Assembly (NCBI GenBank): GCA_036172245.1
Contig: JAYWIR010000011.1
Coordinates: forward strand, 2,976,001-3,040,000
DNA length: 64,000 nt
From: Raillietiella orientalis
Lineage: Eukaryota
Direction of reading: 5' to 3'
Part shown: positions 11,401 to 53,035 of the stretch, piece after piece
How the letters are laid out: the number at the start of each line of letters is the position of its first letter
Numbering within the stretch: position 1 is the first letter of the stretch
Notes under the pieces: model-generated
What the model was told of the DNA's origin: nothing
What the model saw: only the letters and a program-made list of their open reading frames with translations
Databases searched by the model: none
Made by a program: the position numbers and the translations under genes

Positions 11401-13419
11401 CTTCGATTAAAAGTAAATAAAAGTGCGAAACAAAAACACACGTGATTTTGCCTTCCGTTTACATTTTTTATTTATGCCGACAAAGGGGATTTGAAGAGAG
11501 CTTTGTATCTATTTGTTCCGTGTTGACTTTTTCCCGAAGTCTCTGTGATGGGAAACGTAAGAGTGGTGTCTCCGTTAGTCTGGGTTGACTCTCCGTTCCC
11601 ATGCTGAAAGCCAAAAAGTAACTTCAGTCTTATTCTGCTTCTTGAAGTTGAAAATCGAAACTTTCTCGGAATTTTCCTTCACACCCGTCCTGTAGTCGGT
11701 CTTGAAAACTGACTTCAAAACAGGCAGAAATTATTTGAAATAAACTGATGGAATTCATTTATTCTGTGCACGTCCATTGCCACGAATGTTCTTGATGGCT
11801 GACAGTTCATTCCTGAGCGGACTATTTAGCTCCATCTTATAAAAGTGTAGCTTCTCCTTATCTCCATAATAGGTATTCAATACCTATGTTTGCTTCGCAA
11901 CATGGTACCTACGAACCCCTGGTCACAGAATGCGTGCAGCTTCCACTGCACTGCTTGCGAGGGAGTTTATGAACACAGGTGGAAAACTTTTTCATGTTCA
12001 CTAGATTCAATGAGGGAATGTATGGATACTTGTTTGCTTGTTGCACTCAGATACCAAGTGTACAAAACAAAAGATTGCTTCAAATCCAGAAAAAGACGTC
12101 GCTTGTTCCCTTAGAAAGGTCAGATCATCGCTGAACTGTTTGCTCTTCAGAGCATTAGTCTGAAAGATCCACGAATTTTCATTCCCCATCGTCCGCCATG
12201 TTTCTTTCCTATGGAATAAATAAAGTATGCCACTGACTCAGAGTCTTTGCGTTTCTGTTGATGGGATGGCTCTGAAACATTGGTAAACATCTCTTTAACA
12301 CGCAGCATGTGATGCTTGAAACGAGTATCACGCTGACTTTCCGTATGCACCACGAGATATCGTTGGTCATGACAGCTGGGCCTCTATACTCTGAAACAAC
12401 TTTTTCACCAGTAACTGACGTTGCAGTTTTAGATTCTCGAGGAAGATGGAAAAGTTTTTTTATTGTTATTATATATCCAGAAAGGAAAAGCCACTGTGAG
12501 CTTTTCAGGCGACTGGTTATTGCACTGCAAAGTATCTTGCCCGTAAGGATCTATCCAATCATCGAAGTATGCCTTAGAACTTGGCTACATTTCCATCACC
12601 GACTCACAGTCGTCTTGTGTTATGCTGTCAACCCATCGTCGTTTGGTAGAAACCGTCTAGAATGGAAACGATCCCCTAATGAAGCGATAGTTACAGAAGG
12701 ATGCAACCGCACAAGGAGACAGAAGGAACGCCCGAAAGTTACTTGCCGCATGCCTTGTCGATCTCTAAGCTTCTCTCAAGTAATCCTTGACTGCTTTTTT
12801 AATTGGTCTTTAGTCTCATCGATCCCTTTTTCTCCGTTGCCCCTTGAACTACACTGCAACTACTTTCCAAAAATACCCACGTATTTCGGAAAGTAGCTAT
12901 ATTTCTATGAACTATGCCCTATCGGAAACATCAGTGACCCTCAGCATGTCTACTTTCTCTATCATTGCAATGGTATTCCAGATGAGTCCATCATACAGAA
13001 CCTGACATCCTGCTAGCCACGTCTGCTGTTCAGAGAAGGGCATGGGGATACAGAGAAAGAGAGAAGCATTCCAGGTTCTCCAGAAAAACGAAACAAAGTG
13101 GTTTGGTTATTTACTGAAGGTGATATGACATGGGGAAAAAACAGGTCTTGCTACTGCTCTATAAATTCCTGTAATAACAGCATCGCTGATTTTTTAATTA
13201 CTTAGCAACACTACATGACGTCAAACATCAAATGTGGTTACGGGAGCTCAAAAAAAGTGCTACTTGCTGCACGAAAATCCCAATATTACAAATTACGAAA
13301 GATTGATAGAATAGAAAAGTTCTAGAAAATACTATTCAAACAGTAGCATCTTGGTCAGTCTAAAAACATTGTCTCCGTTTTTTTAAAGTAGATATTCCTT
13401 GCTTGTTCATTTTTATTCC

Positions 13420-14600
13420 CATTTCTCCGGGGACTTAGGATCGACTGGGGACCGTGCTCAAAGGCTGTTCTCATGGAACCCTTCTCCACATCAGACCACC
13501 AGGATCTCACTGGAGTATTTGCTACTACCACCAAGATCTGCGCCGACGGCGGCTCCAAGCGAGCTCGCGCCCAAACCCTTCTGCGCGCACCGTCGCGACT
13601 CTCCTACTCTCCGGAACCTGCCGTCCTCCGGAACGCGTCCGGAAGACAGGAACGGCTCTGTCCCGGCATTTGGCTATAGGCTCGACGCTTGAGTGCCATC
13701 TATTCTCAGGGATAGTTGCTTCGGCAGGTGAGTCGTTACACACTCCTTAGCGGATTCCGACATCCATGGCCACCGTCCTGCTGTCCACAGCAACCAACAC
13801 CTTTCATGGGATCTGATGAGCGTCTCACCGGTAGCTCCGTAACAAAAAGGTTGAGTTTATCCCACAGCGCCAGTTCTGCTTACCAAAATTGGGCCACTGG
13901 GCGCTCATGAATCCGACAGTCCGAGCTTCAGCTTTCAAGCATGCCGGGCTTCTTACCCATTTAAAGTTTGAGAATAGGTTGAGATCGTTTCGGCCCCAAG
14001 ACCTCTAATCATTCGCTTGACCGGATGAGACTCCGTTCTTTTTCCGCTCCAGGTATCCTGAGGGAAACTTCGGAAGGAACGAGCTACTAGATGGTTCGAC
14101 TCGTCCTTCGCCCCTATACCCAGCTCTTACGACCAATTTGCACGTTAGGATCGCTGCGGACCTCCACCAGAGTTTCCTCTGGCTTCGTCCTGGCCAGGCA
14201 TAGTTCACCTTCGTTTGGGTCCCAGCGTGCGCGCTCCAGGTACTCTCCGACGGCGATCGCGCGTTACGGAACGTCCCGGGAGTGCTCCGCGCTACGGCCG
14301 CCGAGCCAGCGGTGGGCGACGAGCGCGCTCGCAGGCGGATCTTCCCGGCTTGGCGCGCGATCGGACACCCGCGATAGCACCACACGCGACCGCCGACGCG
14401 CCGGGACTCCCCGACCGCCGACGGCGCGCGAGGGCGACACGGACGGGGCGCAGAGACCGACGCGCCCTGCGCGACGGGAGGGGGGAACCCGCGGGGCCGT
14501 CGTCGACGCCGCTCCCTTTCATTGCGCCTTCGGGTTTCGCCAACTTCCCAGACGACTCGCGCGCCTGCTGGACTCCTTGGTCCATGTTCTAGAACTGGGT
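13420..14600 (-). pseudogene. 28S (LSU) rRNA gene fragment, from the D2/D3 junction to D7a; decayed copy outside an rDNA array
   Basis: Reverse complement of conserved LSU blocks (GACTCCTTGGTCC, GTATCCTGAGGGAAACTTCGG, ACCCATTTAAAGTTTGAGAATAGGTTGAG, TTTGCTACTACCACCAAGATCTG, CTTAGGATCGAC). Substitutions occur in normally invariant positions (e.g. GGTCCATGTTCTAGAACTGGG vs GGTCCGTGTTTCAAGACGGG). No 18S, 5.8S or ITS flanks. Confidence 0.93.
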
Positions 14601-15102: not shown

Positions 15103-17539
15103 TTACATCTTCTTCACGGAATTCAAACCTAGAAGAGCAAGAATGTTGCCCATGACTTCAGAAGTAGCTTCACAGAGAAGCAAACGACCCATGTCCACAT
15201 TAACAATTCTTCCACTACTGCCTTCCCGCTGTATACAGTAACAGGTTTCATAAAAATCAGAAAACAGATTGGCTAAATCATACAGGTAATCACACAACAA
15301 ATGAATGTGAAGTTCTTGCGCAGCTCGATTTATTACTTCCACGTAATGCAACAATGCCTGCAGATACAAATGTGAAAAAGTGCGTCTACTCAGACTTACC
15401 TTGGCCAGTTTCAACTCCTTAGGGTGATTAACTGAAACATCTGACACATGTACAGACTGACGAATAATAGAACTTGAAACCTGAGCAGCAGACAAAATGG
15501 AGTGAATCCGTGTCAATGCATATAGGATGTAAACAGCAGTGTTACCCTTGTCTTCCAGCATCTGAAGTCAGCAGAAAAATATAAATAAACAAGTAGAATG
15601 CAAATGGTACCTTGCTAAATGAGAATACATATTCATGGTTGCGATTCTTGGAAAGATCAGCATACTTGATACAGCCATATGCTACAGCCTCTTCTGCTGC
15701 TTGCATTTCTTCAGTGCTTAAGACAGCATCCCGGCTCTTCTTAAGTAACTTTTCTTGAGATCTGCGTATTCCTTCGTCAAGGAGATCTAACAGTTTCACC
15801 GTGTTGCCTTCCCTTGTCTTGAATTTTTTCCCATCCTCGCCCAGCACAACCCCAAACCCACAATGGTTCACTCTAACCTTCACTGGATCCCAAATACCAA
15901 CTTCAGCAGCACATGCAAAGATGGTTTTAAAGTGCTGTGCCTAAAAACCACTAACCCTCCTGATGCAATAGTAACAGTTTTATACCTGCCCAGCATCAGT
16001 CACATAGATGATCCAGTCAGCATGTTCCTCTTCAATACGGTACTTCAAGCAAGTCAAATCTGAAGTATCATATGTGAAAGCACCATCTGATTTCACAAGG
16101 GTCAAAGGCACTTTCATTCCAGAAGCAAACAGAACTTTCCGTCCTTCATCTTCTTGTAACACTCCTGAACAGAGCATAAGTGCAATGAAGCAACAACTTA
16201 AATCATATACCTTGCTGATCAAGTGAGGAGACCAACTTTTGCATTCGACTTTGGTAGAATGATTCTCCTTTTTCATGTACGACAATCTGTAGTCTATTGT
16301 ACACTTTCTGAAATTCTGCCAACACTCAAACTAAACCCAAAAAACCAATTCACCTTTACGAGATTCCTCACATATCAACTTCCAAGCATTCACAGTGGAA
16401 GGATCTCCAGACTGCAACTTCACAACAAAAGAATATGCCTTCTTTTTGAATGCAGCATCTGCATCAAAGTGCTCTTTTGCTTCCTATCAAGACCAAACTA
16501 CACATAAATCATAAGTTCTTCCGGAAAATTCCAACCTTGTAAAATGTCTGCAGATCTCCAATAGGAGGACTTTTTTTCTCGTAATCAGGAAACTCCTCTT
16601 GCAGGTGAGCAATGAGCATACCAAACTGAGTACCCCAATCACCCACATGATTCACCCGAACCACTTCATGACCCAAATATTCCAGCAATCTAGAAATGCT
16701 ATCACCAATGATAGTGGACCTACAAGAGCATACATTCCATTCAAGCAAAAGAAATGCATCTGACCTTAAGTGTCCAACATGCATCTGCTTAGCTATGTTT
16801 GGTGAAGAAAAGTCAACAACAACTTTCAATTTTCTACGGATTTCCGGAGGAAGAGCACCATATACAATTATTTTCTTTACTTCATTCTGTACAAAATCCT
16901 TTCTGATAACAATATTCAGAAAACCTGCTCCAGCTACTTTTACACTTTCACAGATTTCATTTTCTGGTAAAAGAGACTCAAGTTTCTGAGCAACTTCGAG
17001 TGATGAAACTGTTATTCCTTGGCTTCGGAGTACTTGGGATAAAGTCAAACTTGAGTTGAACTGATAATCACCAAATTTGGCATTGGATGCAGGAACAACA
17101 GAAACTTGGAAACCAGATACTGATGGATATGCAAGCTTTATAGCCTCAGTAAATAACTGTGACAGCTTGGCAATTGGAGATACAATGCGCTGATGAGCTT
17201 CATCTTTTCTTCCAAGCTCACATTTAAGAATTGCCTGTAACCAATTCAGACTGATAAAATCATTCAATTAAAACACTAATCTATGATAGCCAATCAAATC
17301 TTTCACCTGCCTCTTTCAAAATATTGATCCGATACTTCAATTTTTCATGTTCACTTCTCAAGTCAGCAATGTTGTTATGGCCCTCTTCATGGCGAATTAT
17401 ATGATCACATTTGTGTTTTTGTTTCATTTCTTGCAAGTGATTAAACTTCATAATTAGCTCATCCAGGTGGCTCTCCTTAAAATTCCTTCATTAATGCAAG
17501 CAACTCTAAGAGTTAACACTGATTCTAAACTTGAACCAT
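15103..17539 (-). CDS. RARS1: Cytoplasmic arginyl-tRNA synthetase
   Basis: Exons 17475-17311, 17234-16765, 16719-16536, 16483-16354, 16315-16211, 16164-15986, 15940-15611, 15561-15400 and 15357-15103 total 660 codons including the stop. Motifs: [24 protein letters not shown] (HIGH-like), [38 protein letters not shown]-terminal KLKYRINIL. The start exon is uncertain (candidate ATG at 17539). Confidence 0.96.
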
Positions 17540-22086: not shown

Positions 22087-22976
22087 ATGGGATGCTGCCT
22101 TAATGTTTTTCTAAAATGTTGCTTGGGTGTGGAAAAAAAATATAATGATCAGGTAATGAAAAAGTTCACAATTGTGTGAGGACCTATCCCTTTATTGATT
22201 TGATCCTATATGAAACAATTGAATCTTGTTATTGGTGATGCATATTTTCATTACATTTCTACCCTTTTTAAGGAAATTTATGCAAATGAACACACAAGAC
22301 TCTTAGATAGTTCTGTAAATAACAGTATTCTCCATAATACTCTAACGAGGCAAGTAATCCAATTGAAACTTTTCAAGAATCATATGCTGTAGTGCTGACT
22401 ATGAAGCAGGTCATGCTGGAATGTCCTTAGCAAAACAAAATGATGAGAATGCAGAACTGAATAAGATTTTACAAGAGACCCTGTCTCGAGTTATTGATGT
22501 ATCAGCTCTTGACCTGTACAACCTTGAACAGCATGAATATGCTGACCGCCTTCAACTTTATTCATATAGGTAAGTTATCATTGATACATCATTTGAATTA
22601 CATCTATTAATGTCACTGTATCCATAAAAGTATATTGGAAATTGTTTTATGTTTAGACAATGTTGAAAAGGTATTGCAAGTTGTTTAACTAACATTGTGA
22701 TTGTTTTTGAGACTCCAGTGCTTCACAAATGACTCTGTTGTTGGTAATCCTCTGCCATCAAATAATGTTCCTTTAAAGGATATGCCTGTCATGGGAAATT
22801 TAGAAAACTCTTTTCCTGAAGACGATATACAAGAAGTAAGGAAATTGGCTTTTCTCTTAATGTTCACTTGCTTTAATTAATTTAAGATACTCCAAATAAG
22901 CAGCAGGATAGCTGAAGCTTTTCATGAAATCAAGATTGTATCAGAGGAACCACTAGTACTACCACTGGATATATGA
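22087..22976 (+). CDS. LAMTOR1: Ragulator complex subunit LAMTOR1 (p18), 177 aa
   Basis: Exons 22087-22152, 22273-22349, 22393-22569, 22712-22835 and 22887-22976. N-terminal MGCC acylation motif, EHTRLL dileucine-like motif, DENAELNKILQETLSRVIDVSALD...LEQHEYADR...YSYRL, C-terminal EIKIVSEEPLVL. Confidence 0.92.
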
Positions 22977-23256: not shown

Positions 23257-23514
23257 TTAATCTTCTGGTTTTTCTGGTGGTGGACCACAAGGCTGAAGCA
23301 TTTTTTCCATCAGATTAAAACGAACTCTTGCTTTTGTTTCATTCTCAGCTATTGCAAAAAAGTTCAGCATATCAAAATGTCCCATGAAAGAAGCATAAGA
23401 ATCCCGGTGCTGATTCACAACCCAATCAAACTTAATGGTGTCTGCATGTCCAGTGCCAATGTATTTGGACTGCAAATGTTCCAACTGACTGTGAATGTTG
23501 TATCTATCACCCAT
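23257..23514 (-). CDS. SF3B5: Splicing factor 3B subunit 5 (SF3b10), single coding exon, 85 aa
   Basis: MGDRYNIHSQLEHLQSKYIGTGHADTIKFDWVVNQHRDS...ARVRFNLMEKMLQPCGPPPEKPED, nearly identical to the animal SF3B5 consensus. Confidence 0.98.
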   Translation of the reverse strand: MGDRYNIHSQLEHLQSKYIGTGHADTIKFDWVVNQHRDSYASFMGHFDMLNFFAIAENETKARVRFNLMEKMLQPCGPPPEKPED

Positions 23515-26167
23515 GGAAAACTGTGCAACTAGTTTTTCATATTAAAAGATCTGAATAGAAATACACATTTGAGGTTACAAATCACAAAAATTCATCTTCA
23601 CATTATTCATAAGTAACCACGGATATGGTTAATTTCATTTTTACGTTAGTGCTTTATTCACAAATTCATGCATGCACACTATCTCCCCATCGTAACGCAA
23701 TTTTCGGATTCCAGTTTAAGGTGAATTGAATGGAGTCCATGTATTCCCCCAAAATTGGCACTTCTTTAAAACAATCACGACAGCGTTAACTGCACTTTCA
23801 CCAGTTACTTAATCAAATCATGCACACCCGAATATAGCTAAAGTACTTAATTTTCCGCAAATGGAGTGAATTCCACATAACTTACTAACAACATATGCTA
23901 AACAATTTAAAGTGCCGTGAACATACTTAAACATGGGTATCTGCAGCGAACAGTGAGATATTTGAAGGATCTAAAGATACATTCATATGACTTTCCCAAT
24001 GAGTTTTCCCCACAGACGAAACATGCAATACACGAAATAAAAAAGAAAATGCACACAAGGTTGGGTTCACTTTTTCCGCGATTTCCTTTCGCAAACTCGC
24101 ACGAAATACTCGAGGGGGGGGGGGGGGAGTTCTGCACCCTTGACTCGGTGTGGAAAAAAGCTGTTCCACGGGCAGCGTCTGTCCCAGAAACGCAACTTAC
24201 ATTCCAGTTCCGAAAGCCACCACAACTAATGCTGGGAAACCACAACAAAATCAACACGGGGGAAGCAAACTTGTGTGGATGCAAAACGAAACTCCCTGTA
24301 TCAGACACAATAAGGACGAGGAGAACAAGGGAACGTTGGATGTTTGTGGGAAGCAACTGGGCCAACCACACCGTGCAAACCGGCTACCACCGTTGCAGCA
24401 GCAGCAGCAGCAAGCTGACCCCGTTTCAGCTCGTCAGGACGGCCTCTTCCACGCCAGCGGCTCATCTACCACGTGCTGCCTCTCAACACGAAAGTCGTCC
24501 ATTTCCTGACCAAGGATTCATGTGCAAGGCTTGAAGGACTTATGCAGAAACCCCTCCATGATGAAGAGGGTTAGCGTCCCGACTTATTTCGACAGATAAC
24601 GGATGGTTGGGGAAGAACGTTCCACCCGTGGTCGGAAAAATACCAAGGGAGACATGGCCACTGTCAACACGGATGACTCCTGTAGATGCAGAGTTTACCT
24701 AATCGGTGAAACGTCCTTGTAAAATGAACAAGTGTCTTTTTGAAATTCACAATCCGATGCCATTGCTATTTCTTTTTTTCGTTTTTTATGCATCGAGGAA
24801 ATTAAGCTCCCCATTTTCTGGCTGGAAGTTTGGCATGATAATTGAATAAACTGCAATGAATCCCTCTCCTCTAAGGTGCAGCAAACTCCCCAACGCGGAA
24901 ACCTTACCCCATGATATAAACTGCTGAACCAGATTGAGGAATTTCTGAGTTGTACTGAGATTGTGAATGTAAATGAACTGTGAAAAGGATCACTCTGTAC
25001 ACGTGAAAAGAAATGGATGATAATATGGAAATGTATCATCCAATGTGTTGGTGGTAACGATAAGCAATAGTGTCTATGTTCTTCTTATAGCTAAACCATT
25101 CCGTGCATTCCAAATGCTCCACTAGAATGAACTTGGAAAAAGTCATTTTACTCAATGGTCCAAAATTGCAAACGAAAGATGGGAAGAACAAAAAACAGAG
25201 CAAAACAAAAAAATGGAATAATTGAATAGGAAGGTCTCGAATGATGTGAAATGAGAAACCATTAACACAATATATTGGTACTTTTACTCATACCAATTTT
25301 GCGTTCGTAATTCCTTTTTTTTTCTTCATGAAACTTTAGAATGTGTGGCATGCATACTGTAATACAGCATGTATGCTGTAATAATTCACGACAGGAAGTC
25401 TTTTTCCCGACTTCTTAGGCTGCGAAGTCACGTCATGTGCGGAGAAATTTAATTCTCAGAAGCTACAAATGATGCAGCTAGACTATTGGAAAGCATTTTG
25501 GAACAAGAAAATCCTTGGGAACTAATTGATGATTACGCTCATGAAGATGATGAATGTTGATTACATTATAATTGCAGTATTTTCATAAAATCGAGAATTA
25601 AAAATAAATTATCATTGAAGAGCCTTGAATCTTAAATGTAATGGAGCAACCGTAAAGATTATAGGTCCTTCTCACTCCATATTGTTTTGGAAAATGGGAC
25701 TTTGGTCGATGTTTTCTGATGCATTGGGAAATCGCGCTGGCCAGCCGCAAATACAAATTTCAATCTTTGCATGGTTAGTGTAGCATACGTTGATGATGCC
25801 CCCCATGTGTGCGCAAAACATAGTTGGTTTGTTTGTTTTTTTTTTGAATCCAAAACGCTAAGAATTTTCTGACTTACATAAGAGGAAAGGCCCACCACAT
25901 ATTGGGATTTCCCAAAAACAATAACAGTTGGCAACACCGCAAGGCGGAAGCTTTCAACCTGCGAATTCGTTTTATTTTCATCCGACTGAACTTAGGTGAC
26001 CACATTGAGATATCTTTTCTTGGCACAGCTGGCAGAAGTTTTCTTTTCTGTAGTTACCATAAAGACCCCTTACATTATCAAAATGACCAAAAGGTTTCAG
26101 CTGCCTAAGTTTTCGATGCTTGTCTTTGCTTTTCTTTCCTTGAAAATTATTAGCACATCAAACGTTT

Positions 26168-26560
26168 TTAATTCATGTACCTTCTACGCCTTTCATACAC
26201 AATTTGTTGCTGATAGAACAAAGCATTTTTCAAGTAGTTCTGGATCTGCATTAACGATGGCACTGCATCAGTTAATAAATTTACAGTCTCCAGAGCATAA
26301 TCCAAATCATAAATTGTTCCTTGTAGCTTGTCTCCGAGTTGGACTTGTTCCTGCTGGCATTCGATATTTGCTGGCAGGGTATGCAGTACATGTTCATGTA
26401 TACAGCAAAGTGCTAAGGATGGTTCATGTGCTAGTAATAGCAAAATTTCTGATGTTCTACATGCCACTAAAAAAACTGGAATCACCTCAACAGAGTAAAC
26501 CACGTAATCACCTTTTTCAATTCGTTTTTCCAATTGGAGATCAGTAGCATGTGCCTCCAT
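26168..26560 (-). CDS. BORCS8: BLOC-1-related complex subunit 8 (MEF2BNB), 115 aa
   Basis: Exons 26560-26512 and 26466-26168 with a 45-nt intron. KVACRTSEILLLLAHEPSLALCCIHEHVLHTLP...LQGTIYDLDYALETV aligns with BORCS8 [33 protein letters not shown]...QGAIYTVEYA. Confidence 0.85.
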   Translation of the reverse strand: MEAHATDLQLEKRIEKGDYVVYSVEVIPVFLVACRTSEILLLLAHEPSLALCCIHEHVLHTLPANIECQQEQVQLGDKLQGTIYDLDYALETVNLLTDAVPSLMQIQNYLKNALFYQQQIVYERRRRYMN

Positions 26561-26682
26561 TACAAGAACACTTTGAAACTACACTTTCAATAAATGTTAA
26601 TGCAAAATACCTAAAGAAAAAAACGAAGTGAATCTAAAACTGTGATGATCCCTTCCCAGATTTATGTTCTTATTTGCAATTT

Positions 26683-28317
26683 TTATTGCAGTTTGTTAAA
26701 GGCTGTAGGAGATCCCAAGTTATTTTCTGACAAGTGGTGTTTTTCTTGAAACTGCCGATGAACAGCATACTTTAAAGCAACCAAGAACTCGGAAAATGAT
26801 GCTACTGGTCCAGAAAGATATAAAGCATGGGCAAGAAGGGGAAGCTTCCGTAAAGTGCGACCTCCTAAACCTTTACTCTCCCTTTTCGAAAACAAAACAA
26901 AATAATTCGGAATAATTCAAATAAATAAACAAATTACTTTGCTAATTCCCTCAGTTGGAGACTACACACTGATGACATTGCATCTAAATTGGACATCTGC
27001 AAATATGATAATGACAGAATGGGTACTTGAGGATAAATGATTCCTTTCTGCATTAAATTCACCATTACATATTAGTCAATCCTTTCCTTACCTTCATAAG
27101 CTCTCGCAATGAAGATGCATAAATTTTATAAATAGCATCAGCACTAGGTAGTCCAACATACTGACGTATATCAGCACGATCCACAAATGCAATATCAATG
27201 GTAGCAGAAATATTTGATGTAGTCAAAATCAGCACATTAGGGTACCTGAAAAGAATTTAATAAATAACAATTACTGTATACTGACCTCCTAATCTGGTCC
27301 AGTTGTGTTAGTAATGCATTTACTACTCGGACGGCATCAGATGGATCAGCACCTGAACTACATGATAAGCGAGACCGTGTTAAACTTTCAACTTCATCTA
27401 TTAAAACAAATACTAAATCCTTGTTATCAACCATTAACTCTTGGATCTTGCTAAACATCTTTAGGACTAGTTTGCCACTCTATATAAGTTACATCAGTAG
27501 ATATTTAATACGAATATTTACTTGCCTCAGAAAACCACTTTGAAAATAAGCTATGGCTGTTAATTTCAATAAGCTGTCCATAAGAAAAACGATGACTCAA
27601 ACGGATGGATAGTTTCTGTGCCAGTGCTTTGCAGAGAGTTGTTTTTCCAGTCCCAGGTGGACCATGAAGCAACACAACTTTACTACAGGACACCAAATTA
27701 GGATCAACATTCTGATCAGCAAAACACAATGTGGAATTCACAAAACTAAGCAGCTAAAAGCAATCAGAATTTCAAATGCTTCATGCATCTCTTCTGACCT
27801 CACTTTTAATATCATTATCATAAATCAATGATTCCCACTGATGATGAAACTCAAGATTGGGTAAAATCCAATGACGTGCTGCAGGAATTTCTTCTTCATC
27901 TTCAATTCCCTCCATGTCACTACCATGAGGATCCAATTTATATACATGATATTGCACTTGGGTATTTTGAAAATCAATTTCCTATGCAACATCAGTAAGA
28001 TCTAAGACACAATAAACATGTGATGCTTACTTGATGGTGACACTTTTCTGAGACAGTAATGTGAATTTCCACAACATGCTCTTTAAGTACAGGATGAGAA
28101 AATTCCGTTATTATCACTTCATTCATGGGGTATTTTTGATCTTTGAACACTTCTTCAGCTATGTTTCTTAAATTATCTTTAATATATACACTGAAAAGCT
28201 TCATGTGTTTATGAATCTTAAGCTACATTACCTGTTTAATTTCTGTAAAATTTCGACGTGGACAACAGGAATCTCTCCATCTTTCTTGATACAATCACCA
28301 GATGTATCAGCTCCCAT
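26683..28317 (-). CDS. TRIP13: Pachytene checkpoint 2 / TRIP13 AAA+ ATPase, 437 aa
   Basis: Eight exons: 28317-28232, 28190-28031, 27981-27799, 27753-27526, 27479-27286, 27245-27092, 27047-26938, 26881-26683. Walker [41 protein letters not shown], Walker [39 protein letters not shown]. Confidence 0.97.
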
Positions 28318-28480
28318 ATTAACAAGATCAAAACTAGTAATTACCTGAGAAAAAGTTTAAAAATCATATAATTCTAATTTTTCCAATAGTAACACGTTAA
28401 AGAGTGACAATATCCCCAGGAACCCATCAATGCCACTATCCTTTTCAAAATTAAACAGACTTGCAGAATTGTCATTAATT

Positions 28481-30542
28481 TTATCGTCTGAAAAAAATAG
28501 TTTTTTTTTCCAATATAAGTTGTTCATCATGCATCCATAATATTTCACATAAATCATTCAATATTTGTGCTGACTTATGGAAGTTTTCTTCTGAATTAGA
28601 ATACTTATGAGAAGCTATTAATATTGGTATTTGATGTACAATACTAAAATGATACATTTCTGTCATTACAGAAGTGTCAGTGTCAGAATCAGGCCTAAAA
28701 AAATACAAAGTTCTCAAAAGTCTGAATTCAAGAAACGTACAAATGATTCAATTTTACAACTCTCAAGAAGCTAAATACACAAACACGGATTTTATTATGT
28801 ATGTATGATTTCTCTGTAAAATGGTACTGCCACAATATATCAAGCTGAACTTAAGATAGAAATTTAAGACTTTAAGCTGCTTATACTGTGATTATTCAAA
28901 AATACTGAATCACAAAATAATAATAACTGGAAAGTCCGTGGAAGCTTTTTCAAAGTAAACCATTTCTGTCATTAAAAATTGTAGTTCAAAAATCAGCAAT
29001 ATCACAGAATAATGATACTAATACAAGGATGAAAACTTATAGAAACAATGAGGGCAACTAATAACTATTACCTGACTACTGCTAACACATGTGCTATATT
29101 TGAGTGCACCTGCTGATTTTGTTTCACAACAGAATTCATTTCATCAAGACCTCTCTGGCTTGCTTCTACTAAATGCACACAAAGGTCAGCATTCTCTGCA
29201 CAAGACTAACAAAGACAGACATTAACTAATGTTCTGATCATAAAATTATATTTTAGATAAACTGCAAAACAGGCATTTAAGCAATCATGTACTACTTATA
29301 TTAGAACCATATAAATAGTAGAAAGCATAATGATAATATCTTGAAAAGATAATGCTTGATTTTTGTTGATTAAAAACCTAATAAAGATAATAAACAAAAA
29401 ATACATTCTGATATGTCATTCTCTGGGTTGAGAAATTAAAAACACCAGTATAATTATTCATTTTAACAGATACTCATTATAAACATCAACACAAAATTCC
29501 CTAGGAATTGAGAAATATTCTAGGAAATCATTCCTAACATTCAACCACAAAATAATCTGAAAACCTAACCATCCAATGGCTACCATGCAACAAAACAATA
29601 TTTGCATGATGACAGCAACACGTATTAGTTATTCATTTACATTTTACATGTTTTAAGTTACTTCATAAATTCAAAATCATAAGATGCTGAATGCTTTGTA
29701 AAATCAGATGAGATCTAATCCAATTAAAATACATGCTCACATTGTGAATGTATTCATATCTTTTAGAGGCAGCTGTCCCAGCATCCCAGAACTGAAGACT
29801 GAATAAAACTACCTGTTTATTAATTGTAACTGGCCAATGAATATTTAATACTTGTATACCAATAGCTTCTGTTTGTGTTGTCTCTATGCAATTACCTGAC
29901 AACTTATTTATGAACTCCGTTTTTCCAATATCAACATCTCCTACAAAGATAAAGAACCATAAACATATATTTCACTTCTGCCTTTATTCACCTCTTAAAA
30001 ACAACTTATATTGTATTTCACTGATTCCTGGATACTTAATGGGTACATCAAGAAGGCCTGAAATTTCAAACTTATAAAAGCACATCCTGGAATAAGAGGA
30101 AACTCTATTCCCTGCTCAGCATCTTTTCATACGTACTTGTCGCACAAGTACGTATGAAAAAATGGGGAACGCCTTGATATACAAATACCATTATTGGCAA
30201 TTCAGCTGTAAAACCAATCAAAACTTCCAAATCATATGAAGTCCAATTTAGCTTAAGGGTCGTACAAAATACCAATGCTGTTGGAATGTAATAATTAATT
30301 GTAAATACTGTTTGGATGGATACCGCAGATGTAACACATAATGAAAACCGTATTTTTCAAATGAAACTTTTTGAAAACATACCAAATGCTTTTTGCTTAA
30401 AAGCATGCCCAGGTTCAGCTAAGCCATCATAACGAATGTCTTTCAAATAACCTTTCGCTTCTTCTGATTTATACCAATTTCTATCAATGAGCTTTCTATT
30501 TACCCTAAATTCTTGAAACGGGTTAACTGCAGTCTCATTCAT
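28481..30542 (-). CDS. CPLANE2: Ciliogenesis and planar polarity effector 2 (RSG1) small GTPase, 257 aa
   Basis: Exons 30542-30383, 30057-29992, 29940-29741, 29205-29072 and 28694-28481. FGLL..., YKLFLRGDVDIGKT (P-loop), GIQVLNIHWP, LQFWDAG, C-terminal AQILNDLCEILWMHDE, matching RSG1 AHILNGLAEQLWHQDQ. Confidence 0.85.
30124..30160. repeat. Perfect 17-bp inverted repeat (3-nt loop) in CPLANE2 intron 1
   Basis: TTTTCATACGTACTTGT-CGC-ACAAGTACGTATGAAAA. Confidence 0.95.
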
Positions 30543-31699
30543 TATGATTAATACGGAAACACTGCAGAGTTGAAGTTGTACACTTGGATGGATATCTAGC
30601 AGTCAACTGAGTAAAATTCAAACTACATTCTTTATTTAGGCAAATTCTCAAATATGCGACCAACTACAATAGGCAGATCAAGCTCAGGACAATGAACAGC
30701 TATATGATGAAGAACAACATCTGGCAAATTATATTTAATCATTCCTGGCCCAATTCGGTAGATCTTTAACACGAACGATTTAAAAAAGCGCTACGCTTCG
30801 AAACTTCAACGAAAGCAATTCGAATAACAGACATATCAAGGCGTCACCATAAAGAACAAGTATTCCGAGAGATCAAAAGGAATTTCAAAAGCAATTTGAT
30901 CATGAGCTCATAACTTTTAAAATTCATCATAAACAATTAGGTCGTTTATGATTTCATAATTTTTGACCGACTAGTGCTGAAAATAAATTACAAAATCAAT
31001 TCTTCAAAGTCAGTTGTATTATTAAATGAATATCAGAAACAAAAGGAAAAAAATCGAAATTTTAATTCGTGATAATACGCGTTATAGTCAATCACAAGAA
31101 TTCTGCAATATTTGAATCCTATTATCTGGCACTATGCATTCATGACTACTTTTTTCGAATTAGACTTCTAGTAAAGATTAGAATATTTTTATTTTTTTTA
31201 TTATTCCTTCAGATTAGTATCACGCTTTCGGAGAACCAAAAATGTACTTTAATGAACTCCAAGAATTCTTGCATTACACATGATTGATGCTTCTTTTCAT
31301 ACTGAAATACACAGTGACCCTTATTAAGGTATAATAAGCATTTATAAGGATTCTGGAACATGAAATTTTCATGATGAGATATCTTCGAATGCAACTAGAT
31401 GAAATCAGTACCAAACCATCTATACTGATTGGAAATATCAAAGAATTTTGATTTTTAAGTGAAATTTAATGTGGAATTCATTAAAATAGCTCTGCACGCA
31501 TGAAGCCGATTGCAGAGATACTGCTTATATGAGAAGCATAAATGCTGGAGTTTCTGAACTCAAAAAAGCTGTAATTCTTTCGTGGTCTCTGACCTACAAT
31601 AGTGTCTAGTTTTATTTTATTTTTTTTCCAATCTAGGCCAGTTTGCTAGAAGCCCCAGATTTAAATCAAACTGATGATGGACAACAGTGAATACGACAG

Positions 31700-33750: not shown

Positions 33751-34861
33751 TTCGATAAGAACGAAAGCAATATTGAACATTATAAAATAATGAATGCATG
33801 TATAAGAAATTCATCCTTCATGAAACCATTCTGTGTCCATAAAATAATATGATTTCTACAAACGGCATTCGATCAGAATAAAAAAAAAACAAATGATGCG
33901 AAGTGATGAAATTTATGACTCTTTACAGTTTGCAATCGCCCTCGTGTTTCCCTGGTAGATGGAGTCAATCAAAGAAAAACTATTGATATTCTAATTAAGT
34001 ATGCCTTGAGAATAACCTCGTTCATGCAGTTATGCTGTTAATTGAAAGTTGAGTTCATCTTATTTTGTACAAGTATTTTTAATCAATGCAAATGCCACAG
34101 TTCCTAAAAATTTCTGTTTTTAAGAATATTTTAGAAGTTTTTCAATACTATGCATGTCTGATACGGACAATGATTACTTAATTTATAATTTGCACTGCTA
34201 GATAGCATATAATTACCTATCATTCTGAATTGTGAAAGAAGTTCAGTATCGGAACTTCAATTCTAACTTCCGATGATTAGATGATGTATAAATGTTACTT
34301 TGTAACTAATATTTAATAATTTATAGCACTAACTTAAGTCTACCTTTAGGCAATTGCCTGTTGAAATGTGACACAAATAAACTACACAAAACTCAAAGTA
34401 TCATAAAATAAAGCTAGTTAACCAATTCTAAGTATGACAAAGAATTTAACGAAAGAGATAAATGCCTAAACGATCGAGAAATTATTTTCAAATGTATAAA
34501 TATAATCTTAATTTGTGTTTCTCTTAGAAATGAAAGTAGATCAATTTCTTTGAGTATCCATCGCTAATAAATAAAATGTCATGCATGGTTAGATAACCTT
34601 GAGGCAAAGCAAAATATGCTATGTAATGAAATCGAATGTTGGTAGTCTTGTTTACTTCGTTTGCTAAAGGGTCTTGTGCAGCTGAGAAGTGTGCATGTTT
34701 GTGTGGATCAATTAAAACCATGCCCAATGGATTAAATATGTTGGAGAGAACAGTCAACCGTTGAATTAGTACGCGAGTTGACCAAAGCGGCCGATTATGT
34801 GTTTATTGGATATGAAATAGTAAAATTGTCTGTGCGAAAGTACATATTGGCAGAGTTTGTT

Positions 34862-37762
34862 ATGGGAACTACAAATGCAGTTGAGGCTCAGAAAAGCGAT
34901 GCTGAACATGTTAATGACAGTGATGATGCAAGTAGTATGCTGCATAATTGGATTGATATTACCTCAGAATTTTCTAAAGCATGTGAAGGTAGTACAAGTA
35001 GCAAGTTATATTCTGCAACTGCTTCATATGATTCTTTTTTGAGCTTCTCAGTTGTTTATTTAGAAATACTAATTCTCTTTTGTATCTGGTTATTTATAGA
35101 TCTTGCTCTGGGTGAACTTGTGCACGATGAAACATTTGGATTATTTGAAGCCATGTCTGCAATTGAAATGATGGATCCCAAAATGGATGCTGGGATGATG
35201 GGCCATAAGGAAAATTATAAATCTTTGGATTTTGACTCTGCTTCAAAGGTTCTGTAGTTTTGATATCTAATGATCCATTGCATGGGCTATCAATGCTTTG
35301 GTGGCCCATGCAGGTGTTTTTGTGGAAATTTTTCATATGGATATTATGAAAAATTTTGATTGAATAATATACTTGTTGTGGGTGTAAATGTTCATTGAGA
35401 ATAGCTCTTGGACTAATTACAAGGCTACAGGTTTATTCCTTTCACTAATGCTGAATTTGCATCAGACAGGAAAATTAAAACTAAAAGATTTGACTGCTGC
35501 AGAAAAAATAAGTATCATGGATCATTCTTGGAGCTGTTTAGTGACATGGCTGGAGGGTCATACTTTAGCCCAAACTGTGTTCATAAATTTATATTTTCAT
35601 AAGCCTCATGAAATTCATGATCGCTGTATTAGAGCTTTCAGTTTTGCATTTCTGAAAATGGTAGATTTGATCAGGGAGTTTGTTATCAGGTAATCATGCT
35701 ATAATAAGTGGATGTTATGTTTGTGAGTAGAGCAGGAGTCTATGAAGAAGAGGATTTTCAACCCATGTCTTATGGCTTTAAGTTTGCACAAGACATTCTT
35801 GAGATTAAAGCATGTGCTATGTTAAGGGAAGTTGAAGAAGAGTGTTTTCGAAAACTGAAATCAACTCGTAACAAGCAAGGAGAAGTATGGGATCGAAAGA
35901 CACAGCAATTAGTGAGTTGCTCGATGCTTTAAAGGATTCATTTTTTTGTATCAGCATGAAGATGCTACAGCTCTTCATGCACGCATCAAATTTTTACGCT
36001 TGTTATATCAGACTCTGCTTTCCTTTAATCGCAAGGATTGTGCTGGTGTACCTGATGCTGAACGATTTTTGGTCACGTGTTTAGAGCTGAATGAAGTTAT
36101 GCAGACAACCATCAACAAAGCAGGGGCATCCATTGTTCAAGGAGATAGTCTGTGTGCATATTACATTGGTGACATTATGATGGAATTCATTAGGTATCCA
36201 CTTTCAATTAATGGGTTTTGAGCCCTATGTGAACCAGCGGATGCTTCCTCCCACTTTCCCACGCTACACAAACATTAAAAGTGTTGAAGAGAGCCTAAGT
36301 TATTTAGAAGGATTAATTATTCGTTTACGTAAAGTTTGTGAATTGGTTGATCTCATGCAGTTTCACCAAGCTCTGGTAGGCATCGATTCTTTGGATGGGA
36401 ATAATGTTTGGCATAAGGAGTTTTTTTGGGACTTTGGTCAGAAGCGTCCCTGTGTTCTATCGCGATCCATACCACAGATTCTGTATCTGCCACAAGGAAC
36501 TTGTGTTTTTGGAGTTCTCAGTTTTACTGGTGTCCTCAAGGATGCATGCCGAAACTTCATATGCCCTCCAGCACTATCACCAAAATGTGCTCTGATTAAC
36601 AATCTTCAAGTATGTGAATTATGTTGATTGTAAGTTTTCAATTCTTAAACTTGCATTCCTCAGTGCCGAGAAACTATAGAGACATTTCTTGAGCACTGTG
36701 TGCAGCCTTTTGTCAGCCTTATCCAGATTTGTGGTCATAATCGTGCTCGACAAAGAGACAAGCTGGCTAACTTGTTGGAGGATTTTGCATCATTGCAAGA
36801 AGAGGTAACATACACAGAATAATGTGGTTTGGTAATAAGGAACTCTAGGCAGACAAGTTGGATGCCTTTTTGCACCAAATGGCAATGAAAAGTGACAATC
36901 CGAAACCACATTTGGCTTGCTTCAGCACATGGATTCTGTATCATACCATCAAGATCATGATACAGTATTTACTGATTGGCTTTGAATTAGAGTTGTACAG
37001 TCTGCATGAATACTACTATGTGTATTGGTAAGTTTGTATCACGGGGGATTCAATTTTCGTAGGTATTTGTACGAATTCTTGTATGGTTGGTACATTTCTG
37101 CCTTGAGCCGAGCAGATGCTTTTCTTATGGAACAGGAGCATGTTCAGGATGCTGGACGGGGAAGTAGCAATAGAAAAATGAAAGGAAAAAGAAAGAGAGT
37201 GAGGCCATTCGGAAGAGAAATTGCCACTAGTCAGGGATTACAGAATCTTTGTGCTGGCTTGTATAAGGTTACCATAATGTTGTGAAACATTTTTCAAGGT
37301 TTTGAAGATGTTACTAGGATTACGTTTTGGGAATAGGATTCCAAAACCACGACCAGAATTCAACAACGAGCAGGTTCGTTATGAACATCGATTTCTTCCT
37401 TTTGCCAGGATTGTAACGCCTCCCATGATTCCATACATGCAATTTCAAGAGGCGATTGATCTTTTTCAAATGCAGTGGCAAAATTCAATAGAAGAATGCT
37501 TTTTTTCAGCCTGTAAAAGTTTTCATCAGGCAAAGACTCATTTAGAATCAATTAGCAATCCTTCTTTAGAAGTAGATATCGAATGGCATGCATGAAAAGA
37601 TTTATTATTTCTCTCTCCTTGCAGATTGAGAATATTCTGAAGATTGTGAAAACAAATTTTGTGGTCGCAAAGTTGTTAAGTGGAGGACACAAAAAAGAAT
37701 CTGTTCAAATCCCGTTGTTTGATTTCTCTCTGCATTCTTCATTTCCTGTAATTCGCCTTTAA
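34862..37762 (+). CDS. NAA35: N-alpha-acetyltransferase 35 (MAK10), NatC auxiliary subunit, about 724 aa
   Basis: Twelve exons: 34862-34988, 35100-35248, 35466-35689, 35731-35911, 35955-36147 (or -36153), 36194-36375, 36418-36609, 36664-36804, 36849-37027, 37063-37267, 37308-37571, 37625-37762. Motifs [81 protein letters not shown]. Confidence 0.97.
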
Positions 37763-51654: not shown

Positions 51655-53035
51655 CCTAGGGCAATGGAAATCCCTTGAGATACTCTTCTGTTTCGCTGCT
51701 TCCCTTCCAGCTTTCCTTTTTTTGGTTCGCCAGGTGCCGAAGAACCGTTCGTCTCTTCAGGGAGGAGGTCCACCACGGAGGGACCGCCCTATGAATCCAG
51801 GAAGCTCTCCAGAGTAAGGGGTCCATTCAACTCTTACGCTTGGGAGGGACTCTCCAAGGAAACCTCTCTCTCATTCTCTCTAAACAAACCCCCCGGAGAT
51901 GTCCAATCTTCGTATCTCCTCCAGAGGGAACCCGCAAGTGAACCGCTCCTTGTTTATTCCCCTGTAGAAACCCCAAAGGGACGCTTTCCCGAAGAGTACA
52001 GCGAGCTTCTTACACTCTGGAGAGGCAACCTACCAGGGGAGGAGGGGGAGGGGAACGTCGTCAACCAGCTCCATGGTACGAACTCTATTTTCAAAACCGG
52101 AAGGAAACTGGATCCTGGGTTCAAGGAAGGAACCCGGAGGGTAAACTCCCTATCCTGACCAGACGACGGGGACAGCCGGCTCCTACCAGTACTGACGCAC
52201 CCGCAATGGAAATCCTTTTGGTTTCCTTTTTGTCATCGTCCTCTTCCTTTCAGCTTTTTTTTGGTTCGCCGAGTACTTCAAGAACGGTCGCGCCCCTGGC
52301 AGCGGCTCACGCAGCTCTTTGCCGCCGTTCCACGCCACCCGAGGGTGCATGTGATTCTTCAAGATAAAGGGTGGCTCCCTCCAGAGGCACCCTTTATCTA
52401 TGGATCACCTATGAATCCAGGCAGGGCTCCGTAGAAGGGAGTCCGTTCCTCTCACTCCTGGGGAGGAATCCCTGAAGGGAACACCTCCACTTTGGTTGTC
52501 TCCGAAGGTAACCCCAAAGGGAATCCCCTTCCTTATTCACTCCGGAGGAACCCCTCGGAAGGAATCTTCACTCATTTCTTCACCGGAGGGCACCCTCAAG
52601 GGAACCGCACCTTTTTACTCCTCTGAAGACAACCCCGAAGGCACGCTTCCCAATTTTCTCTGAGGGGCTCTCCCCGAAGGAAGTGGCGCTCTCCTTAACA
52701 CTCTGGAAAGGCAAACCCCCGAGGGGAGTATCAACCATTTCCGTACTACCGCCTCATTCTCGAAACCGGATGGGGAACTTCGAAGGGAAGCGGCTCTTTG
52801 ATTCCTGGAAGGAGCCTGGAGGGTCGACTTCCCATCTCGGTCAGTCAAAGGGGGTATCCTGGGATTTCTCGCCTCCTTATCCGAGGTCTGCTGGCCAGCT
52901 AGCCTCATCCTGCAGGAGAAGGGGAAGGGCGGGGAATTGAAACCCCATTTCTCGGCGTCGATCCTTCCCCGGGAGGGATTCGAACCCGCAACTCTTGGTT
53001 GCCACGAGCGCAGACAGTAGCAGCCGCAACGCGTG
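51655..53035 (-). mobile_element. Two head-to-tail copies (B, 5'-truncated, about 51655-52172; C, about 52200-53035) of the same SINE-like repeat
   Basis: Shared blocks GCAATGGAAATCC (51661/52203), TTTTTGGTTCGCC, CCTATGAATCCAGG and AAACCGGA. B-box (reverse) at 52975-52987. Confidence 0.75.

Follow-up and report, generated by a model that had tools for sequence, protein, structure and literature searches.

A compact CPLANE2-TRIP13-BORCS8 cluster with acceptor-like sites in its spacers, possibly an operon resolved by spliced-leader trans-splicing

Three unrelated genes in close succession on one strand

Within the 64-kb window (the whole stretch of DNA that was analysed), a CPLANE2-like gene, TRIP13 and BORCS8 are arranged head to tail, all on the minus strand, and exon models leave spacers of 163 nt and 122 nt between them. 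The three are unrelated animal genes. This layout, with the same two gaps, had been proposed in an earlier sequence-only reading and was borne out by reading the minus strand and by the exon models. The other intergenic regions had been described as far longer, which is also the case: elsewhere in the window, genes are separated by about 0.7, 2.65, 4.3 and 4.7 kb, a comparison that covers only seven genes in one window. The features of the cluster are listed in the direction of transcription.

28481..30542, minus strand: CPLANE2-like gene, four exons (30542-30383, 29940-29741, 29205-29072 and 28694-28481)
28318..28480, minus strand: spacer 1, 163 nt, with one CpG and a candidate donor CAA/GTCTGT at 28460
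26683..28317, minus strand: TRIP13 gene, eight exons, with Pfam AAA and TRIP13 lid domains
26682..26687, minus strand: AATAAA overlapping the TRIP13 stop codon
26561..26682, minus strand: spacer 2, 122 nt, with one CpG but neither an ATG nor a usable donor
26168..26560, minus strand: BORCS8 gene, exons 26560-26512 and 26466-26168, one 45-nt intron
26167..26172, minus strand: ATTAAA overlapping the BORCS8 stop codon

For the CPLANE2-like gene, exon 2 matched one PDB chain only, 7q3e_D (E = 2.9e-7), which is entered as "Ciliogenesis and planar polarity effector 2", and the gene shows a weak Pfam match to the Roc domain (E = 2e-5); its introns measure 442, 535 and 377 nt. TRIP13 was identified by its lid domain (Pfam E = 6.8e-13), with AAA also matched, and is interrupted by introns of 41, 49, 45, 46 (GC-AG), 40, 44 and 56 nt. 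The identity of BORCS8 rests on a Pfam match with E = 5e-21, and the spliced model is colinear with the homologue P0001 in an alignment. The neighboring SF3B5 was recognized in the same way (Pfam E = 1.2e-38). No tandem repeats with a score of at least 200 and only two internal repeat pairs were found in the window; the spacers are thus not repeat copies.

In all four minus-strand genes examined, the stop codon is overlapped by a poly(A)-type hexamer (GATAAA, AATAAA, ATTAAA and ATTAAA), and RARS carries an AATAAA 10 nt past its stop. A poly(A)-like hexamer had been claimed at the upstream stop for each spacer. For TRIP13 this stands, the AATAAA being located 71 nt from the AG of the following acceptor-like site; for CPLANE2 it does not hold in the canonical form, as its hexamers are all non-canonical (GATAAA at 28485-28480 and TTTAAA at 28361-28356).

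Insect dicistronic genes and the cholinergic locus are also built from tight same-strand ORFs, which in these cases share one promoter; they rely on reinitiation or on a cis-spliced genomic leader exon, and such an exon is only hypothetical in the present cluster. The cluster might yield an unprocessed di- or tricistronic mRNA whose ORFs are translated in the manner of the insect dicistronic genes, through reinitiation or leaky scanning, with the pyrimidine tracts of the spacers being incidental or poly(A)-related U-rich elements. The short spacers, the lack of an ATG in spacer 2 and the one promoter-like CpG zone described below fit such an mRNA, but it would carry strong poly(A) signals at internal stop codons and gives no reason for a motif that is common to both spacers. 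Furthermore, long upstream ORFs make reinitiation inefficient, and those in question comprise 235 and 437 codons. We therefore regard an unprocessed polycistronic mRNA as quite improbable.

A composite acceptor-like signal in both spacers

The pyrimidine-rich acceptor-like sites that had been reported for the two spacers, at 28345 and 26611, were found as described. The first, ACTTTTTCTCAG, ends at 28345 with the TRIP13 ATG 27 nt further, and the second, TTCGTTTTTTTCTTTAG, ends at 26611 with the BORCS8 ATG 50 nt further. A third site of this kind, caacttcaactctgCAG, is located in front of CPLANE2.

28339..28364, minus strand: composite site 1, a pyrimidine tract followed by CAG/GTAATT, AG ending at 28345
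26605..26630, minus strand: composite site 2, a pyrimidine tract followed by TAG/GTATTT, AG ending at 26611
30562..30581, minus strand: moderate acceptor-like site, 19 nt before the CPLANE2 ATG

Acceptor strength was determined as the number of pyrimidines at positions -20 to -4. The sites at 28345 and 26611 contain 13/17 and 15/17 pyrimidines, respectively, compared to 7-12 in 11 real acceptors of local genes, and the site before CPLANE2 (10/17) falls inside the range of the latter. In 12.2 kb of local intergenic DNA, of which both strands were used as background, YAG sites scoring at least 13 occur at a frequency of 0.98 per kb per strand (24 sites), and those scoring at least 15 at 0.12 per kb per strand (three sites, none of them on the minus strand). 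Measured against this local background, a site of the observed strength would arise by chance with a probability of about 0.15 in spacer 1 and of about 0.015 in spacer 2.

The similarity of the two sites extends beyond the AG. The pattern Y7-AGGTAWTT, which was drawn up after inspecting both of them, matches just these two sites on both strands of the 64 kb, with 0.02 matches expected, and two matches were obtained in none of 100 shuffles. GTA directly after the AG is present in two of 45 strong YAG sites, and these two are the spacer sites. The GTAWTT following both AGs looks like a donor and is not predicted by a plain acceptor model. Between acceptor and start codon, the 5' regions of TRIP13 and BORCS8 are both free of ATGs; spacer 1 contains three (28475, 28427 and 28367), all upstream of the acceptor. 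The GT at 28344 was also considered as the donor of a 5'UTR intron and was rejected, since the start codon supported by the alignment with TRIP13 N-termini would be spliced out, and the ATG that comes next is not in frame. In spacer 2, the T-run is located 54-68 nt beyond the AATAAA and could alternatively represent a U-rich element that follows the poly(A) site.

As to possible donors for these acceptors, the TRIP13-BORCS8 spacer had been said to contain no good one, and this is correct: its only GTs would lead to introns of 30 nt and 14 nt. The description of the donors in the CPLANE2-TRIP13 spacer as only weak was too strong, because the donor at 28460 has a PWM score of 5.9, within the range of 5.1-9.8 obtained for true donors (8/10 correctly placed donors in a leave-one-out analysis, an eleventh entry being off by one base), and would give a 116-nt intron into 28345. 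The acceptor of TRIP13 is therefore not strictly unpaired.

A donor of normal strength that leads into 28345 speaks for a use of the acceptors in cis, for which two variants are conceivable. In one, transcription from the CPLANE2 promoter would begin with a non-coding leader exon that is alternatively spliced to the CPLANE2, TRIP13 or BORCS8 acceptor, following the logic of the cholinergic locus, and the regenerated donor-like GTAWTT might permit recursive re-splicing; in the other, each downstream gene would start within the upstream gene and have a short 5'UTR intron for which these sites are the acceptors. The last TRIP13 exon contains two donor-like sites, one at 26770 (score 6.5, 160 nt) and another at 26731 (score 3.7, 121 nt), and SF3B5 is of the same design, with an acceptor of its own and a possible paired donor that would define a 51-nt 5'UTR intron. 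The consensus of recursive splice sites is a juxtaposed acceptor and donor; YnAG/GTAWTT fits it, and the pattern is confined to the two sites. However, the recursive sites we know of belong to very long introns and not to introns of 2-4 kb, the leader exon or upstream start site is hypothetical only, and the second variant would require promoters within CpG-depleted gene bodies. The first is compatible with the single CpG-retaining zone. Taking both variants together, cis use of the acceptors appears rather unlikely.

The shared motif can also be read as a promoter element. TRIP13 and BORCS8 would then be transcribed separately from compact promoters of their own, which would be situated within the upstream gene's 3' end or overlap with it, the 3'UTRs would be very short owing to the poly(A) signals at the stop codons, and the Y-rich AGGTAWTT would be a core-promoter or initiator-region element. 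The hexamers at the stop codons favor this explanation, leaving about 100-140 nt free in each spacer, and a 15-nt motif unique to both 5' regions is what would be expected of a common promoter element. In addition, the BORCS8 copy resembles the Drosophila "Ohler motif 6", agreeing at 10/12 positions with what we take to be its consensus, and a trans-splicing machinery need not be assumed. On the other hand, RGTATWTT is not enriched at the 5' ends of other genes, its 18 matches being scattered over both strands of the window, and two successive gaps of this size contrast with the 0.7-4.7 kb found elsewhere in it. The 5' regions of TRIP13 and BORCS8 are moreover without retained CpGs, unlike those of CPLANE2, SF3B5 and NAA35 (see below). 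Separate promoters, which would make the locus an ordinary, locally compact gene island, are a serious alternative, if a somewhat unlikely one.

CpG depletion and the proposed transcription unit

CpG depletion can be read as a mark of germline gene-body methylation, with unmethylated promoters retaining their CpGs. The whole cluster from 26168 to 30542, including the spacers, shows a continuous CpG depletion with an observed/expected ratio (o/e) of 0.37. In the 600 nt preceding the four stand-alone genes, CpG o/e values of 1.15 (CPLANE2), 1.02 (SF3B5), 0.88 (NAA35) and 0.72 (RARS) were found; the 300 nt before the ATG have values of 0.36 for TRIP13 and 0.52 for BORCS8. The high value for CPLANE2 coincides with the following feature.

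30756..30866, minus strand: ten clustered CpGs, located 215-325 nt ahead of the CPLANE2 ATG (o/e 1.15 for 30543-31142)

The gene cluster has no other promoter-like zone with retained CpGs, and we regard this one as a putative promoter. A single such zone and an unbroken depletion through the spacers are compatible with one promoter upstream of CPLANE2; the CpG landscape thus lends this arrangement indirect support. At short range the CpG contrast is weak, as RARS likewise contains only two CpGs within the 300 nt that precede its start codon. The pattern further implies gene-body methylation, as far as this can be read from base composition.

Taken together, we propose that CPLANE2, TRIP13 and BORCS8 may form one transcription unit, the promoter being situated about 200-300 nt ahead of CPLANE2. 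Its polycistronic precursor would be cleaved at the poly(A) signals overlapping the stop codons of the upstream genes, and TRIP13 and BORCS8 would be capped via spliced-leader (SL) trans-splicing at the two composite sites (AG ending at 28345 and 26611), so that their 5'UTRs beyond the leader would comprise 27 nt and 50 nt, respectively. This reading presupposes that the three genes are co-transcribed, that both sites serve as acceptors and that an SL RNA exists, and we assign the SL-resolved operon a probability of roughly 0.38. A search of the 64-kb window for an SL RNA with Rfam, which has few SL families, returned only an LSU rRNA fragment at gathering score and E <= 1.

A more far-reaching version, in which the composite signal Y-tract-AG/GTAWTT resolves true polycistronic operons in a gene-body-methylating lineage without a sequenced close relative, possibly a crustacean-like arthropod, seems doubtful. 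The donor-like half would in that case represent a mechanistic variant, for instance leader re-splicing or U1-assisted site choice; the operons of nematodes, tunicates and chaetognaths are not known to use such a variant.

SF3B5 had been suggested as a possible further member of the unit. It probably does not belong to it, being 2.65 kb away, with a CpG-retaining zone upstream and with the acceptor and possible donor of its own that were mentioned above.

Relation to known operons and to the animal of origin

The SL2-type operons of Caenorhabditis elegans resemble the proposed operon in that co-oriented unrelated genes are separated by a poly(A) signal, a short gap and a U-rich acceptor before the next ORF. 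They differ from it in three respects: the AG of the present sites is followed by the donor-like GTAWTT, CPLANE2 is without a canonical AAUAAA, and an SL is only postulated for this cluster. In addition, C. elegans to our knowledge lacks the gene-body methylation that the CpG pattern implies for this window, and the same is true, as far as we know, for flatworms and bdelloid rotifers. Ciona possesses trans-splicing and gene-body methylation together, which is the pairing the proposed operon would need, and as in the operons of Ciona intestinalis and Oikopleura dioica, one SL would serve operonic and other genes.

A distance of about 100 nt from poly(A) signal to acceptor had been regarded as typical of nematode, tunicate and flatworm operons alike. 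This applies to C. elegans, with about 100 bp between cistrons, but not to tunicates, for which excerpts of the same source give medians of 1 bp (Ciona) and about 31-33 bp (Oikopleura) (PMC7986045), as compared to roughly 45-120 nt past the presumed poly(A) sites here. Tunicates are also absent among the best 120 RARS matches.

In the chaetognath Paraspadella gotoi, genes on the same strand with less than 250 bp between them were counted as operons, which were validated by splice leaders; they include 18% of the genes and are enriched for housekeeping and germline genes (excerpts of PMC12460157). The gaps of 163 and 122 nt in the cluster would fall under this definition. The same excerpts describe P. 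gotoi as being without gene-body methylation, which differs from the strong gene-body CpG depletion in this window, and report that transposons have become the new target of this methylation in nematodes, chaetognaths and ctenophores, all of which trans-splice (PMC12460157). Its loss in several trans-splicing lineages, set against the gene-body-methylation signature found here, lowers the prior for an SL operon.

Should the animal prove to be a crustacean, it would belong to a group with a known SL system, SL trans-splicing being described in copepods and amphipods (PMC4664967; passages of PMC7986045). Operons are given as unreported in these animals as of 2021 in the passages of the latter (PMC7986045), and our literature search for copepod or amphipod operons found no later report.

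The DNA had been assigned to an arthropod-like animal, and no confirmation of this was obtained. Among protein-library matches to the RARS fragment, identity does not exceed about 56% (best 120 matches; best 150 representatives), and the trees give no resolved placement. In a FastTree analysis of 120 RARS fragments, the query groups with P0122 and P0129 weakly near hexapods (SH-like support 81-89); a quick IQ-TREE tree of 33 RARS rows is star-like with no starred clade, the query pairing with a wasp at an SH-aLRT of 85. Nine of 20 representative clusters looked up could be named, comprising Drosophila, Owenia, Biomphalaria, Sphaerothecum, Seison, Priapulus, two nematodes and a fish. Protein searches gave one match for BORCS8 (43% identity) and zero matches for the NAA35 exon. 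A metagenome scan with TRIP13 exon 4 yielded 80 loci that were kept, the best with a full-length identity of 54%; CPLANE2, BORCS8 or SF3B5 was found beside TRIP13 in 0/80 of these.

SL-resolved operons have several independent origins in animals and a patchy distribution, and trans-splicing has been tied to lineages that lost gene-body methylation (excerpts of PMC12460157 and PMC7986045). Should the proposed operon prove true, it would be located in a lineage that keeps the gene-body-methylation signature and would represent an independent data point on operon evolution, the more so where only a leader, or nothing, has been described for the lineage so far. It would also bear on whether operons depend on the loss of methylation. 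The common 15-nt composite motif provides a concrete handle, as its occurrences upstream of start codons can be counted genome-wide.

Composition and spacing of the gene cluster

The cluster comprises three genes, for which exon models were built from the sequence:

30542 to 28481, minus strand: CPLANE2-like gene, four exons, introns of 442, 535 and 377 nt
28317 to 26683, minus strand: TRIP13, eight exons, seven mini-introns, 40-56 nt long and including a GC-AG intron
26560 to 26168, minus strand: BORCS8, one intron of 45 nt

BORCS8 was identified by Pfam (E = 5e-21), and its spliced model is colinear in alignment with P0001, its only database homologue. TRIP13 matches the Pfam lid domain (E = 6.8e-13) and AAA. 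Exon 2 of CPLANE2 has a sole PDB match, chain 7q3e_D ('Ciliogenesis and planar polarity effector 2', E = 2.9e-7), and exon 1 has no match in PDB. Introns differ in size between neighbours, all seven in TRIP13 being 40-56 nt versus 377-535 nt in CPLANE2; TRIP13 intron 4 (27525-27480, minus strand) is the 46-nt GC-AG intron (GAG/gcaagt...atatag).

The exon models return the same spacer lengths as the sequence-only reading, 163 nt (spacer 1, CPLANE2-TRIP13) and 122 nt (spacer 2, TRIP13-BORCS8). Pfam scans covered 126 of the 198 ORFs of at least 75 aa from 1-50 kb (the remainder being set aside manually). They also took in the overall 20 longest ORFs and, from three adjoining intergenic stretches, 118 ORFs of 45-74 aa. 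Only four other genes were found in these ORFs:

15106 to about 17410, minus strand: RARS (Pfam)
22367-22570, plus strand: LAMTOR1 exon (Pfam LAMTOR, E = 6.1e-11)
23257-23514, minus strand: SF3B5 (Pfam)
about 34860-37600, plus strand: NAA35 (Pfam)

For the seven genes compared, the remaining gaps are approximately 0.7, 2.65, 4.3 and 4.7 kb, and the two short spacers are therefore outliers within the window. The observed tight cluster is real and non-random, and a co-transcribed three-gene unit is its most economical reading. None of 80 metagenomic TRIP13 loci encodes the neighbouring genes. Intercistronic medians reported in PMC7986045 are about 100 bp in C. elegans, 1 bp in Ciona and 31-33 bp in Oikopleura, and in PMC12460157, which takes gaps <250 bp as the criterion, operons contain 18% of chaetognath genes. 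Copepod spliced leaders (SLs) are the subject of PMC4664967; a full-text literature search found no report of SL-resolved operons in an arthropod.

The LAMTOR1 exon and SF3B5 converge, with about 0.7 kb between the exon and the SF3B5 3' end. The exon lies near BORCS8, another lysosome-positioning gene, which is probably a coincidence.

Acceptor-like sites and candidate donors

The two pyrimidine-rich acceptor-like sites were exactly reproduced, ending at 28345 (before TRIP13) and 26611 (before BORCS8). Acceptor strength was measured as the pyrimidine count at positions -20 to -4 (17 positions). The spacer sites score 13/17 and 15/17, compared with 7-12 for 11 real acceptors of the cluster genes. 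Over 12.2 kb of nearby intergenic sequence (both strands), 24 YAG sites score at least 13 (0.98 per kb per strand) and three at least 15, none of these on the minus strand; the chance of such a site in a spacer of the given length is about 0.15 for the 13/17 site and about 0.015 for the 15/17 site.

Both AGs are directly followed by a donor-like GTAWTT (CAG/GTAATT and TAG/GTATTT), which is absent from the earlier reading. Among 45 strong YAG sites at 15-38 kb on both strands, GT comes next after six and GTA after two, the two spacer sites, against a base rate of 43/2652 for GTA after AG. The pattern Y7-AGGTAWTT has two matches in the 64-kb window, both at the spacer sites (expectation 0.02; 0/100 shuffles reach two), and a narrower version behaves in the same way, but these statistics overstate significance because the pattern was drawn up after the sites were seen. 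TRIP13 and BORCS8 clearly have in common a specific 15-16-nt element just 5' of their start codons. A plain operon model does not account for its donor-like half, the loose end of greatest interest here. GTA also follows an acceptor-like site at 31718 (minus strand), ttgattttgtAG/GTATTGAC, which has 12/17 pyrimidines and is situated 1.2 kb 5' of CPLANE2; no recognisable ORF comes after it.

Candidate donors were scored with a weight matrix built from known donors (11 entries, one mis-set by one base). In leave-one-out scoring, eight of the ten correctly placed donors reach 5.1-9.8 and the other two about -2. The scan found no candidate donor in spacer 2; the nearest ones, at 26770 (score 6.5) and 26731 (score 3.7), fall within the final exon of TRIP13. 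Spacer 1 contains CAA/GTCTGT at 28460, which scores 5.9, within the range of those eight donors, and would give a 116-nt intron. Thus, of the two acceptors described as unpaired, the description holds for BORCS8, and that of TRIP13 is not strictly unpaired. A rival reading, in which a leader that is shared or lies upstream is joined in cis, could draw on the donor at 28460 and those in the last TRIP13 exon; we consider it unlikely.

Promoters, 3' ends and resolution of the proposed unit

CpG-poor gene bodies are a hallmark of germline gene-body methylation; promoters that stay unmethylated retain their CpGs. CpG observed/expected (o/e) is low in the gene bodies (RARS 0.35, SF3B5 0.20, BORCS8 0.42, TRIP13 0.40, CPLANE2 0.33, NAA35 0.41), 0.62-0.92 in intergenic DNA, 0.82-0.92 in the flanks of the 15000-38000 stretch and 0.72-1.15 in the 600 nt 5' of four stand-alone genes. 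This pattern is a signature of germline gene-body methylation and provides a usable promoter map for the genome. The cluster (30542 to 26168) forms a single CpG-depleted block (o/e 0.37), and each spacer contains one CpG; o/e in the 300 nt before the ATG is 0.36 for TRIP13 and 0.52 for BORCS8, and ten CpGs are crowded at 30756-30866, upstream of CPLANE2. Against the methylation background, this depletion suggests one promoter for CPLANE2, TRIP13 and BORCS8. It is not decisive, since the spacers are short (two CpGs observed in both together, about six expected at o/e 1) and RARS is likewise CpG-poor next to its ATG.

Four minus-strand genes in a row have a poly(A)-type hexamer overlapping their stop codon:

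28485-28480, minus strand: GATAAA at the CPLANE2 stop
26687-26682, minus strand: AATAAA at the TRIP13 stop
26172-26167, minus strand: ATTAAA at the BORCS8 stop
23259-23257, minus strand: SF3B5 stop, overlapped by ATTAAA

RARS has AATAAA 10 nt past its stop. The 3'UTRs are therefore evidently very short here, which is consistent with an operon whose intercistronic regions span about 45-120 nt and also leaves 100-140 nt where a compact promoter could sit. Separate compact promoters with the motif in common would use this room, and the CpG-poor spacers suggest a single promoter instead; separate promoters are the least unlikely of the rival readings. A polycistron left unprocessed agrees with a single promoter, and would leave the internal hexamers and strong acceptor-like sites without a role; it is quite improbable. 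Of the readings weighed, resolution of the unit by SL trans-splicing is the likeliest, with a probability of roughly 0.38. Rfam detected no SL RNA nor any other small RNA in the window.

SF3B5, proposed as a possible further member, is unlikely to belong to the unit: its upstream o/e of 1.02 argues for a promoter of its own, a 2.65-kb gap separates it from the cluster, and it has a possible 51-nt 5'UTR intron. This candidate intron would join a possible donor AAT/GTGAAG (about 23601) to the strong acceptor tgtatttctattCAG (23551-23565, minus strand), 36 nt before the ATG; the remaining leader contains a 3-codon uORF.

Affinity of the animal and other features of the window

The RARS fragment is 47-56% identical alike to fish, frog, insect, tick and coral orthologues among the matches listed. 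FastTree gave it a weakly supported position beside hexapods, and the tree under a better model (quick search) was star-like; on these sequences an 'arthropod-like' affinity is possible. By the gene-body methylation argument, the CpG signature counts against flatworms and bdelloid rotifers. It also argues against nematodes, chaetognaths and ctenophores, because methylation in these three phyla is described as retargeted away from gene bodies (PMC12460157). The long RARS ORF (16512-17267, minus strand) has about 13 extra residues between HVGHLRS and TIIGD. These are apparently the read-through of a mini-intron kept in frame, taken as intronic on the strength of the conserved motif.

A eukaryotic LSU rRNA fragment (Rfam, 628 bits; model positions 665-1888 of 3401) lies at 13277-14581, minus strand, some 520 nt past the stop codon of RARS. 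Since Rfam found no further rRNA segment and no 5S gene in the window, an rDNA pseudogene or captured fragment is the probable explanation.

GC climbs from about 33% to 58-61% in about 40000-64000, with CpG o/e of 0.88-0.92. Many long ORFs of up to 463 aa occur there on both strands, and 0 of 18 tested have a Pfam match. The region has no tandem repeats scoring 200 or more and only two pairs of internal repeats, a 152-nt inverted pair (55166-55316 / 55479-55628) and one of 122 nt (57084-57205 / 52438-52548).
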